Assembly (NCBI GenBank): GCA_947630575.1
Contig: CANRIB010000004.1
Span: forward strand, 3,027 to 67,026
From: an uncultured Bacilli bacterium
Lineage (GTDB): Bacteria > Bacillota_I > Bacilli_A > RF39 > UBA660
Direction of reading: 5' to 3'
DNA: 64,000 nucleotides
In this document: positions 34,960-37,778 of the stretch, in pieces
Layout of the letters: each line of letters begins with the position of its first letter
Numbering within the stretch: the stretch's first letter is position 1
Program-made: the position numbers and the translations under genes
Notes under the pieces: model-generated
What the model was told of the DNA's origin: nothing
Databases searched by the model: none
Seen by the model: only the letters and a program-made list of their open reading frames with translations

Positions 34960-37778
34960 TGAATACAAAAGAGATAGAAAAGAAATGGCAAAAAATATGG
35001 GCTGATAACCATTATTTTGAAGCTAAAAATGGGGGAGATAAAGAAAAATATTATATATTAGTAGAATTTCCTTATCCGAGTGGTTCGGGTTTACATGTAG
35101 GTCATGTTAGAAGTTATTCCGCTTTAGATGCAATGGCAAGGATGAAGAGGCTACAAGGGTATAATGTATTATTTCCAATGGGATGGGATGCTTTTGGGGC
35201 ACCAGCAGAACAATATGCGATTAAAAATCATATATATCCCGCAGATGCTGTAAAAGAAAATATTAAGACTTTTAAGGGACAAATTGAGGCTTTAGGGATG
35301 TCTTTTGATTGGTCAAGAGAGTTTGCGACGACTGACCCAGAGTATTATAAATGGACTCAATGGCAATTTTTACAATTTGTAAAAAAAGGGATGGCTTATA
35401 AAGCTGAAAAAGAAATAAATTGGTGTCCTAATTGTAAAACTGGGCTTTCTAATGAAGATGCCGCCGGAGGAGTTTGTGAGAGATGTGGGGCTGTTGTAAC
35501 TAAAAAATTAAAATCACAATGGATACTTCGGATGAGTGATTATGCGGATAGATTGCTTGATGGACTTAAAGATACTGAATTTGAAGAGAAAATTAAAACC
35601 GCTCAAATAAATTGGATAGGTAAAAGTATTGGTGCAGAAGTTGACTTTAAACTTAAAGATACAGAAGATGTTTTAAAAGTATTTACAACTAGATGTGATA
35701 CTTTGTTTGGAGTAACATTTATGGTTATGTCACCAGAACATCCTATTTTGGCTAAATATCAGGATAGAATTAAAAATATAGAAGAAGTTAGAAAATATCA
35801 AGAGGAAGCAAAACAAAAAAGTGAAATTGAAAGAACAGATGCAACAAAAGATAAAACAGGAGTTAAATTAGATGGTTTAACTGCGATTAATCCTGTAAAT
35901 GATGAAGAAATACCGATATATATAAGTGATTATGTTTTGGCTTCTTATGGAACAGGGGCAATTATGGCTGTTCCGGCTCATGATGAGAGAGATTATGCTT
36001 TTGCTAAAAAATTTAATATTCCTATTATTCAAGTTTTGGAAGAAACAACTGGAACTCCTCATGAAAATGAAAGTAAGAAAAATTCGATTGTGGCTATTCT
36101 TTATGATGAAGAAAGTGATAAATATTTAACAATAAATTGGCATGAATTAGGGGGACGTTTATTTATTGGGGGAACAATTAAAGAAAATGAAACTCCTTAC
36201 GAGTGTGCTTTAAGAGAAATAAAAGAAGAAACTGGTTATCAAAATGTAGAATTAGTGGAAGTTCTTCCAAGGATAAACCATCATTACTATGCTTTTAATA
36301 AAGATAAATATTTTAATATTGATTCAACAGGATTTTTGTTTAAATTAAAAAATAAAGAACAAACTAAACAAGAACTTGATACAGATGAAGTATTTGATTT
36401 AGAGTGGGTAGATAAAGAGGTAATTAGTGCTGAGGTAAAAGACGAATTACATAGTAAAACCTTTTTATACGCATGTAATGCAGGAGCAATGATTGGTGAT
36501 GGCATACATATTAATTCGGAATTCTTAAATGGCTTAAATAAAGAAGATGCAATAAAGAGGATGCTAGAGTTTTTAGAAGAGAAAAAAGTTGGTAAAAAAA
36601 CGACTAATTATCGCTTACAAGATTGGATATTTTCAAGACAAAGATTCTGGGGTGAACCTATTCCAATGATTTATTGTGAAGATTGTGGATGGGTGCCTGT
36701 ACCAGAAGAAGAACTTCCAGTTTTATTACCTAAAGTTGCGCATTATGAACCTACTGATACAGGAGAATCACCTCTTGCTAATATTCCAGATTGGGTTAAT
36801 ACTCCTTGTCCAAAGTGTGGAAAAATGGCTAAAAGAGAAACTGATACAATGCCTAACTGGGCAGGGTCTAGTTGGTACTGGCTCCGCTATATGGATCCTC
36901 ATAATGATAAAGAATTTGTGGGACAAGATGCGCTTAAATATTGGGGAATGGTAGATTATTATAATGGTGGTATGGAACATGCGACAAGACATTTACTTTA
37001 TGCAAGATTTTGGCATCAATTCCTATATGATCAAGGATTAGTACCAACACCAGAACCATTTAAGAAGAGAGTAGCGCATGGGATGATTTTAGCTGAGGAT
37101 GGAACTAAAATAAGTAAATCTAAAGGTAATGGAATTAATCCTGTTGATGTTGTTAATAAATATGGGGCAGATACTTTAAGATTATTTGAAATGTTTATGG
37201 GAGATTATGAGAAAGATATTCCATGGAGTAATGAAGGTCTTAAAGGATGCAAGAGATTCTTAGATAGAGTAATTAAACTTAAAGAAAAGATTAATGATAA
37301 AGAAGAATATTCAAAAGATTTAGAAAATATTATTCATAAAACTATAAAAAAAGTAACTAATGATTTAGCAACGATGAAATATAATACGGCTGTATCTAGT
37401 TTAATGATTTTAGCAAATAAATATGAAGATAAAGATGTTATTACAAAGAAAGATTATCAAATATTGCTTATTTTATTAAATCCAATTGCGCCACATATTA
37501 CAGAAGAATTAAATGAAGAAATTGGATATACTACCCATATCGCGGCAATGGATTGGCCAAAGTATGATGAGGAGAAAACTATTGATAATGAAGTTACTAT
37601 TGGAGTACAAGTTAATGGTAAGCTTAGAGGAGAAATTACAATTGCAACAGATGAAGAGGAAGAAGATATTAAGGCTAAAGCTTTAGCTAATGAAAATGTT
37701 AAAAAGCATATAGATGGTAAAGAAATAGTTAAAGTAATTATTATTAAAGGAAAGATTGTTAATATTGTAGTAAAGTAA
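34959..37778 (+). CDS. leuS: Leucine--tRNA ligase with an inserted Nudix domain
   Basis: HIGH (HVGH), editing-domain [15 protein letters not shown], KMSKS (KISKS). 939 aa, against about 800-860 typical for bacteria. Confidence 0.95.
   Translation: [939 protein letters not shown]
36040..36492 (+). other. Nudix hydrolase domain inserted within LeuRS
   Basis: Exact Nudix box Gx5Ex7REUxEExGU, read as [23 protein letters not shown]. Flanked by the LeuRS segments FNIPIIQV and [14 protein letters not shown], which are nearly contiguous in B. subtilis LeuS. Confidence 0.8.

Follow-up and report, generated by a model that had tools for sequence, protein, structure and literature searches.

A putative Nudix hydrolase domain embedded in the CP1 editing domain of leucyl-tRNA synthetase from uncultured Bacilli

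The leuS gene and its Nudix insert

We analyzed a stretch of 64,000 nucleotides (nt) from an uncultured Bacilli bacterium (contig CANRIB010000004.1 of assembly GCA_947630575.1), hereafter called the window. Its leuS gene encodes a leucyl-tRNA synthetase (LeuRS) of 939 amino acids (aa) in which a Nudix domain is embedded within CP1, the editing domain of the enzyme. The gene and its elements, with positions in the window, are the following.

34959..37778, + strand: leuS, 939-aa LeuRS with embedded Nudix domain (TIGR00396, Pfam)
35094..35105, + strand: HIGH motif, here HVGH, aa 46-49, invariant in an alignment of 30 sequences
35610..36038, + strand: N-terminal part of the CP1 editing domain, aa 218-360 (PF13603)
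35685-35702, + strand: TTRCDT motif, aa 243-248, in the N-terminal CP1 part
35949-35960, + strand: GTG loop of CP1
35976-35993, + strand: AHDERD, aa 340-345, in the N-terminal CP1 part
36039..36494 (codon register), + strand: Nudix insert, type A, aa 361-512 (Pfam NUDIX, AlphaFold2, Foldseek)
36171..36239, + strand: Nudix box, aa 405-427, exact GX5EX7REUXEEXGU
36495..36623, + strand: C-terminal part of CP1, aa 513-555, aligning to 4K47 and to Thermus thermophilus LeuRS
37107..37121, + strand: KMSKS-class motif, here KISKS, aa 717-721

The product of this open reading frame (ORF) scores 966.3 bits on the NCBIfam equivalog leuS_bact (TIGR00396), whose cutoff is 548.4, and comprises the Pfam domains tRNA-synt_1, tRNA-synt_1_2, NUDIX, and Anticodon_1. 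Its editing domain (PF13603, tRNA-synt_1_2) is matched with 203 bits over aa 218-373, and the part of CP1 that follows the insert aligns with residues 145-182 of the Streptococcus pneumoniae CP1 structure 4K47 and with residues 380-426 of T. thermophilus LeuRS. All the features of the LeuRS family that we tested by sequence are present, i.e., HIGH, a KMSKS-class motif, the T-rich editing motif, and the conserved Asp. Residues T243, T244, R245, D247, T248, D342, and D345 are invariant among the 30 aligned LeuRS relatives, as are K717, S719, K720, and S721. The first-pass annotation of the window, made by a model from the sequence and its ORFs, had described the LeuRS motifs as intact. This stands for HIGH and for TTRCDT, but the KMSKS motif reads KISKS in the window, a conservative M-to-I variant at position 718, where the relatives have M. 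The gene contains 22 TGG codons and no in-frame TGA, and it is therefore read in genetic code 11.

Within this otherwise ordinary framework, a complete Nudix domain whose catalytic box is exact has replaced a short surface loop of CP1. The Pfam profile NUDIX (PF00293) matches aa 378-491 with 59-61 bits (E-value of 1.7e-16), above its gathering score of 21.1, such that the profile search proposed earlier as a check of the insert gave a positive answer. The Nudix box is exact, as noted initially. The insert starts with an 11-residue lead-in, continues with the Nudix fold, and ends with a return linker, NAGAMI; the segments that flank it are aa 337-359 before and aa 513-526 after. When compared with the closest allele lacking a Nudix domain (P0068, 797 aa), the net insertion is 142 aa and takes the place of a CP1 loop of 12-13 residues, in good agreement with the initial estimate of about 150 aa replacing about a dozen residues. 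In 4K47 the loop is bounded by residues 137 and 145, and in T. thermophilus LeuRS by residues 366 and 380. The insert had been given the coordinates 36040-36492 (aa 361-511); the place was right, but the codon register gives 36039-36494.

AlphaFold2 modelled the isolated insert with a predicted local distance difference test score (pLDDT) of 91.3 and a predicted template modelling score (pTM) of 0.85. For the full-length protein the overall values were 83 and 0.69, respectively, with insert residues at a pLDDT of ~88. A Foldseek search of the insert model against the PDB returned 455 matches at E≤1e-3, and the 50 matches listed were all Nudix proteins, with template modelling scores (TM-scores) up to 0.72/0.81. 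According to these models, the insert is predicted to be a complete Nudix domain with its alpha/beta/alpha sandwich, as had been anticipated from its flanking beta-strands.

The insert is under purifying selection, with pairwise ratios of non-synonymous to synonymous substitution rates (dN/dS) of 0.11-0.35. Among 28 non-redundant full-length relatives, the mean pairwise identity is 61% in the insert and 72% in the rest of LeuRS. The Nudix box is intact in every type A homologue with an insert that we inspected, and its catalytic Glu and Arg are invariant across all type A members seen, whether embedded in LeuRS or in the stand-alone proteins described below. The GC content of the insert (~0.29) is the same as that of the remainder of leuS, without compositional break.

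Two elements precede leuS.

34355..34532, + strand: T-box leader (Rfam RF00230), with the Leu specifier GAA-CUU-G at 34441
34564..34959, + strand: small ORF of 131 aa, hydrophobic and Lys-rich, between the T-box and leuS

The leader matches the full length of the RF00230 model with 80.8 bits (E-value of 9.5e-18). It is absent from a default Rfam scan because this score is under the gathering score of 93. Its specifier CUU is a leucine codon, it lies upstream of both the small ORF and leuS, and a T-box at the syntenic place in locus L001 reaches 101.8 bits with an identical GAACUUG. A simple scan of positions 34200-38100 found no terminator-like stem-loop. The stop codon of the 131-aa ORF overlaps the start codon of leuS. 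This ORF matches no Pfam family, and counterparts of 121-136 aa occupy the same position in relatives, in which the gene order GH31 glycosidase, small ORF, and leuS is kept. The 939-aa protein is presumably the working LeuRS of the organism, controlled by the T-box and with its aminoacylation and editing motifs intact. The purifying selection, the upstream Leu T-box, and the invariant LeuRS motifs in relatives all speak for an in-frame domain and not for a decayed gene, as had been argued initially.

Farther upstream, an ORF of 740 aa (29627-31849) between feoB and the GH31 glycosidase gene has no Pfam family at E≤1e-3. Downstream of leuS, positions 39275-40330 encode a transposase of the IS1595 family (ISXO2-like DDE). 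This gene is missing at the otherwise syntenic loci L084 and L085, where genes for TetR and MMPL proteins come directly.

Occurrence, exchange, and stand-alone forms

To assess the distribution of the architecture, we scanned one genome per species with type A-specific peptide patterns and identified 238 matching stretches. The best 80 of these 238 loci come nearly all from metagenome-assembled genomes (MAGs) of the gut, named "uncultured Bacilli/Tenericutes/Erysipelotrichaceae", with rabbit, chicken, ruminant, mouse, and human as hosts; Candidatus Onthocola stercoravium and Candidatus Faecenecus gallistercoris are among them. Around 70 of the best 80 encode a full-length LeuRS-Nudix of 935-948 aa. 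LeuRS+NUDIX proteins in the same size range form more than 110 clusters in the protein database, at 70-86% identity, and the exact 939-aa protein of the window is present on three independent metagenome contigs. One locus (L039, 3207-6172) has the protein split into an ORF of 376 aa with HIGH and one of 603 aa with the Nudix domain and KMSKS, which may be due to a frameshift or sequencing error or may be a genuine split gene. Viral contigs gave weak generic Nudix matches alone, with 25-48% identity around the box.

These counts bear on the concern, raised in the first-pass annotation, that an assembly error could have fused leuS and a Nudix gene into a chimeric ORF. The source is indeed of the MAG type, and some of the relatives in the databases are artefacts, such as the frameshifted L088/P0027 and the probably chimeric P0031. 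However, the three identical contigs, the more than 110 clusters, and the loci of ~70 species exclude a chimera here, and the in-frame insert, the conserved junctions, the purifying selection, and the absence of a compositional break leave this explanation with a practically negligible probability. The other reservation had been that the insertion might prove to be a widely annotated variant of LeuRS. It is widespread, occurring in hundreds of uncultured species, but it is not recognized in annotation: the clusters are named just "class I tRNA ligase family protein" or "leucyl-tRNA synthetase". Our literature search found no description of a LeuRS-Nudix fusion, in line with the initial statement that none was known.

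The presence of the insert varies even among close relatives, in which the same CP1 loop may hold a type A Nudix, a type B Nudix, both in tandem (B+A), or nothing. Relatives without Nudix in the same gene neighbourhood have a LeuRS of 797-799 aa with the canonical short loop. One of these, P0068, shares 91% identity with the window LeuRS when the insert is left aside (92% over the body columns used in the comparison of insert and body below), and P0080-82 are 85% identical. The type B Nudix, which has about 28% identity with type A, occupies the type A site in P0073 and P0135. The LeuRS bodies of these two share 81-84% identity with that of the window. Tandems are found in L045, L068, and the incomplete L010, in proteins of 1108-1117 aa. 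A neighbour-joining tree that we built from 791 columns of the LeuRS body in 90 sequences places type A as ancestral to a large clade, with the empty, B, and B+A states nested inside and several of them right around the window sequence.

Comparisons of insert and body point in the same direction. The nearest relative of the window protein (L029) has a body 94% identical (dN of 0.036) and an insert only 72% identical (dN of 0.223), and the dip in identity is restricted to aa 361-500. Conversely, L005-L007 have bodies 71% identical and inserts 80-81% identical. The history of the insert is thus decoupled from that of the LeuRS body, and this incongruence suggests that the insert has been exchanged by recombination. 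A second mosaic tract is visible in P0068 and L086, which drop to 65-72% identity with the window at aa 681-780, whereas L029 stays at 100% there. This indicates that recombination in leuS extends beyond the insert. The simplest explanation would be homologous recombination between leuS alleles through the highly conserved flanks in CP1. We also considered a simple deletion as the source of the alleles without Nudix. This is unlikely, given that the loop of P0080 (GGDIEKEAY) resembles that of the L001 leuS, presumably also that of Bacillus subtilis LeuRS, and that recombination tracts are visible in the identity profiles. Judging from these alleles, the Nudix domain behaves as an accessory cassette that is added, swapped (A/B), duplicated (B+A), or removed between related leuS genes.

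Some species carry the module outside of the synthetase. Three species genomes (L001, L044, and L065) and more than 12 metagenome clusters (P0002-P0015) have a gene of 276-302 aa whose product coincides exactly with CP1 and its embedded type A Nudix. The stand-alone gene occupies the usual start position of leuS and is followed, within ~15 nt, by a canonical leuS of 809 aa. At L001, the small ORF, the CP1-Nudix gene, and leuS lie together behind the T-box with the Leu specifier. Identity with the window insert is ~70% in the Nudix part. The editing elements are decayed, with VKEVDT in place of TTRxDT and with both the YGTGA loop and a helical segment of ~33 residues missing. An intermediate form is represented by P0019. 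Purifying selection acts on both parts (dN/dS of 0.11-0.12 in the Nudix, 0.20-0.23 in what remains of CP1). Since the editing motifs decayed while the Nudix was conserved, the stand-alone proteins are probably not deacylases. Their constraint and their place behind a Leu T-box indicate that Nudix and CP1 scaffold are retained together, and co-regulated with leuS, even though another gene supplies the synthetase.

Database matches of ~283 aa could have been fragments of LeuRS, caused by recoding of TGA (code 4) or by contig ends. This was rejected because each is a complete gene that lies on a long contig and has a full leuS behind it, and because the window gene has no in-frame TGA. The type A Nudix was never found without CP1 flanks, fragments and chimeras excepted. 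One candidate for a free-standing type A Nudix, P0027, turned out to derive from a LeuRS-Nudix gene riddled with frameshifts (locus L088). Two other proteins have unusual compositions: P0031 (213 aa, on a contig of 980 nt) joins the N-terminal half of an ADP-ribose pyrophosphatase to a type A C-terminal half, and P0026 (320 aa) joins a LeuRS-Nudix fragment to a C-terminal segment of ClpB. Both are probably assembly chimeras or rearrangements formed at conserved sequence. We know of no natural free-standing CP1, and the literature search found none. A review shows CP1 solely as part of synthetases (PMC11295145).

Presence/absence polymorphism, cassette exchange, and a multiplicity of sites, copies, and host genes (see next section) are also what one would expect of a selfish mobile insertion, intein-like or homing, that spreads in housekeeping genes without benefit to the host. 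We regard this as very improbable. Pfam sees NUDIX alone in the insert, with no Hint or endonuclease domain, and the boundaries lack splice-junction residues (neither a C/S start nor an HN+C/S/T end), which led us to reject an intein-like element. Moreover, the catalytic residues are under purifying selection, and the stand-alone form was kept after the synthetase body was lost.

The Nudix subfamily and its possible role

We searched exhaustively for relatives with a profile of the insert family, and obtained 908 cluster representatives at E≤1e-3, 126 of them at E≤1e-10. Among the best matches were 157 near-complete domains: 78 are located at the CP1 loop of LeuRS (site 1), 17 at the N-terminal edge of LeuRS CP1 (site 2), and 6 in LeuRS fragments. 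Some LeuRS carry two or three copies; P0186 (1140 aa) has three NUDIX stretches, of which two are at site 2 and the third is at site 1. In this protein the T-rich editing motif is degenerate (FSAHFEA), and a regular-expression search found no KMSKS-like match. Of 29 diverse Nudix-bearing LeuRS, 27 keep the T-rich editing motif and 26 have one or more strict Nudix boxes.

The subfamily, which has the signature KYLxxxW and FYAxxKxxNR, also occurs outside of LeuRS. An isoleucyl-tRNA synthetase (IleRS) of 1345 aa (P0215) carries a Nudix of the same subfamily in CP1, directly after the AWTTTPWTLPSN editing motif, and additionally has a histidine phosphatase domain (His_Phos_1) at aa 665-809. An RNase PH of 519 aa (P0226) has one inserted between its two domains, and in P0308 (343 aa) a 2H/2'-5' RNA-ligase-like domain (DUF1045) is fused to one. 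Finally, locus L087 (711-3462) encodes a free-standing Nudix of 154 aa that shares 42% identity with the window insert. Its gene lies 4 nt upstream of one of 760 aa resembling valyl-tRNA synthetase (ValRS) and downstream of a tsaD-like gene, on a contig with 37.5% GC. Free-standing members share the N-terminal "G-x-P-H" lead-in of the insert. Each of the associations with IleRS, RNase PH, 2H, and the ValRS neighbour is represented by a single metagenome cluster representative. Overall, the subfamily is found mainly inside or beside the CP1 of class Ia synthetases.

This distribution is relevant to the possibility that the insert is a generic house-cleaning Nudix that hitch-hikes on a housekeeping gene that is stable and well expressed. 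The fusion would then serve solely to secure expression, and the Nudix would not be coupled functionally to LeuRS, CP1, or tRNA. Such a passenger would explain why the insert is dispensable in close relatives, why it evolves somewhat faster than the LeuRS body, and why no substrate-specific family model matches it. CP1 loops tolerate insertions, as the IleRS with a GNAT domain (NF040702) may illustrate. Yet, the association is recurrent and specific, as it involves two CP1 sites in LeuRS, up to three copies, the CP1 of IleRS, and a gene abutting a ValRS-like one. Furthermore, type A is not found without CP1 flanks (fragments and chimeras apart), and the stand-alone form keeps a constrained CP1 scaffold in a Leu T-box operon. 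We therefore see the passenger scenario as an alternative to be taken seriously, though doubtful.

What might the domain cleave? The best profile match of the insert in the PDB is Dcp2 (2e-8, over the whole domain), along with CT771, g5R of African swine fever virus, AvrM14, NudB, and the lupin diadenosine tetraphosphate (Ap4A) hydrolase. The PDB table reads just "CT771" for the second of these, which we take to be the chlamydial Ap4A hydrolase. The nearest NCBIfam models of the insert are NudB, RppH, YtkD, and MutT, all far below cutoff; for most free-standing members of the subfamily the top match is RppH, again below cutoff. The RppH equivalog (NF001936 etc.) requires 118 bits, while the insert scores 27.6 and its best free-standing relatives 32-42. 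With Foldseek, the best TM-scores were obtained with the Aquifex Ap4A hydrolase (0.72/0.81) and the Thermus Ap6A hydrolase, and RppH and NUDT5 had similar E-values. Dcp2, NudB, NUDT5, and MutT-like proteins score comparably to the hydrolases of dinucleoside polyphosphates (ApnA). A Tyr is found at +16/+17 after the Nudix box (HHYYAFNK), which may fit the reported Tyr signature of ApnA hydrolases, placed about 16-18 residues behind the box. The Pro, NADH, and CoA signature motifs of Nudix proteins seem to be absent from the insert.

Together, the neighbours in profile, NCBIfam, and structure searches point to enzymes that would cleave chains of at least three phosphates on a 5' nucleotide (ApnA, 5'-triphosphate or capped RNA, compounds resembling nucleoside triphosphates), and not to those acting on ADP-ribose, NADH, or CoA. 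We hold the assignment to a nucleotide with a polyphosphate chain of at least three phosphates as tentative. The first-pass annotation had suggested Ap4A-type products and alarmones, which would be in keeping with the nearest characterized relatives (Dcp2, RppH, and ApnA hydrolases). Leucyl-adenylate, suggested there as well, was set aside, as we infer that an acyl-phosphate with a single phosphorus, which is not a nucleoside diphosphate linked to another moiety, would not suit such an enzyme.

The explanation that we favour, with a probability of roughly 0.4, is that the insert is an active pyrophosphohydrolase that clears dinucleoside polyphosphates or related 5'-polyphosphate species, its dosage being tied to that of LeuRS. 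The Nudix domain would be Mg-dependent and constitute a third active site of LeuRS. The leading candidates for its substrate would be dinucleoside polyphosphates of the Ap4A/Ap3A type, which synthetases themselves generate from the aminoacyl-adenylate and ATP, with 5'-polyphosphate or Np4-capped RNA ends as alternatives. The tether to LeuRS and the shared T-box would couple the dosage and the location of the hydrolase to the activity of the synthetase. Since natural alleles without the insert exist, the Nudix would be beneficial but not essential.

Several observations weigh against this explanation. No curated Nudix subfamily model of NCBIfam reaches its cutoff and Foldseek does not separate the substrate classes, which makes the assignment of a substrate weak. 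CP1 is far from the synthetic site in known LeuRS structures, and there is not obviously a need for a tether to CP1 in the hydrolysis of Ap4A. The insert has been naturally lost in close relatives and is hence dispensable. The hosts and neighbours RNase PH, 2H phosphoesterase, and tsaD point towards tRNA or RNA ends rather than towards a free small molecule. Lastly, the catalytic box is lost in some distant LeuRS copies (P0265, P0267, and P0313), which hints at a non-catalytic role in those lineages.

These box-less copies are what one would expect if the Nudix fold were a sensor or structural module that binds ADP-ribose, an alarmone, or Ap4A and tunes editing or aminoacylation allosterically, for which a place in the mobile CP1 domain would be suitable. 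We find this improbable. In type A, the catalytic Glu and Arg are invariant in both architectures, and in the stand-alone proteins selection constrains the Nudix more tightly than the CP1 part.

The nature of the hosts and neighbours fits with an enzyme of tRNA or RNA ends, i.e., a Nudix that docks via CP1, or via another host that binds tRNA ends, and processes a blocked or capped acceptor end. Its targets could be a 5'-triphosphate, Np4A or NAD caps (with chemistry like that of RppH or Dcp2), or the 3'-CCA pyrophosphate left by toxic small alarmone synthetases (toxSAS). The closest solved profile relatives are RNA-decapping Nudix proteins (Dcp2, g5R, AvrM14), the free-standing members have RppH as their nearest NCBIfam model, and every remaining host or neighbour works on ends of tRNA or RNA (IleRS CP1 with His_Phos_1, RNase PH, 2H phosphoesterase, tsaD with the ValRS-like gene). 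Pyrophosphorylation of the tRNA CCA end by toxSAS, including FaRel2 of Coprobacillus sp. D7, is documented (e.g., PMC11559606, PMC10565793). On the other hand, the stand-alone CP1-Nudix proteins have lost the elements that bind A76 (the T-rich motif is changed and the GTG loop deleted), so the CCA pocket is not needed; our literature search found no Nudix linked to the repair of tRNA ends; and the host associations are the single representatives mentioned above. Coprobacillus sp. D7 is presumably a member of the Erysipelotrichaceae, and so broadly related to the Bacilli studied here. All considered, we judge a role at tRNA or RNA ends unlikely. A bolder version, in which the whole subfamily is a dedicated enzyme for the processing or repair of tRNA acceptor ends that docks on the CP1 of LeuRS and IleRS, on RNase PH, or beside ValRS, seems to us slightly less likely still. 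Such an enzyme would remove, e.g., the 3'-CCA pyrophosphate of toxSAS, with a phosphatase such as the His_Phos_1 domain of the IleRS P0215 completing the reaction, or else a 5'-triphosphate or an Np4A/NAD cap. If this were true, the synthetase would be a station of tRNA repair and the cassette an exchangeable counter-measure in conflicts with toxins or phages.

Significance and comparison with known systems

We found no description of the arrangement reported here, a Nudix in CP1 that selection maintains in hundreds of gut species and in many further uncultured lineages. Few enzymes are as conserved as the aminoacyl-tRNA synthetases, and an unrelated catalytic domain inside the proofreading domain of one of them is unusual in bacteria. 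The exchange of the cassette suggests that a core gene of translation can carry an accessory recombining module, and one Nudix subfamily seems to be recurrently tied to three synthetases bearing CP1 (LeuRS, IleRS, and the ValRS-like neighbour). To our knowledge, the stand-alone proteins would be the first natural free-standing proteins derived from CP1. Current annotation pipelines give LeuRS-Nudix proteins generic names alone. The question of the substrate is tractable experimentally, because natural controls exist in the form of alleles without insert, type B alleles, and stand-alone CP1-Nudix proteins. The answer would reveal either a coupling of translation to the clearance of nucleotide signals (Ap4A and related alarmones) or a new route of tRNA-end repair or decapping.

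The window LeuRS shares domain order, motifs, and an equivalog-level score with canonical bacterial enzymes (T. thermophilus 1H3N/2BYT, Escherichia coli 4AQ7, and the S. pneumoniae CP1 4K47). It differs from them by the net Nudix insertion of 142 aa at a short CP1 loop and by KISKS in place of KMSKS. The insert itself has the common single-domain Nudix fold, of about 135-160 aa, of RppH/NudH and of ApnA hydrolases (RppH 4S2X/7SP3, Aquifex 3I7U, Thermus 1VC9, CT771), but identities are 14-24%, curated cutoffs are missed, the domain is embedded in another enzyme, and it has a signature of its own. Dcp2, the best solved profile relative (E-value of 2e-8), is a eukaryotic protein, and the match is limited to its Nudix catalytic domain. 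Dcp2 comprises, in addition, a regulatory domain at its N-terminus and a Box B motif; the 152 aa of the insert leave little room for an extra domain.

Other fusions offer partial precedents. The family of IleRS with GNAT (NF040702, ileS_w_GNAT) is another case of a class Ia synthetase that carries an unrelated enzyme domain in one polypeptide. The domain is a GNAT instead of a Nudix, the synthetase is a different one, and the window protein is far below the NF040702 cutoff; our literature search found nothing on an IleRS with embedded GNAT. NadM-Nudix proteins (NF003790/NF003791) combine a nucleotidyltransferase of the HIGH superfamily with a Nudix acting on the product of a related nucleotide chemistry. 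However, they are end-to-end fusions with a Nudix of the ADP-ribose pyrophosphatase type, which matches the window weakly and in the box region alone. The stand-alone CP1-Nudix proteins (P0009, P0015, P0019) resemble the trans-editing factors AlaX, ProXp/YbaK, ThrRS-ed, and DTD in being autonomous copies of an editing domain, here beside the gene of the synthetase. Unlike those factors, they derive from CP1, and it is their Nudix that is conserved while their editing motifs have decayed.

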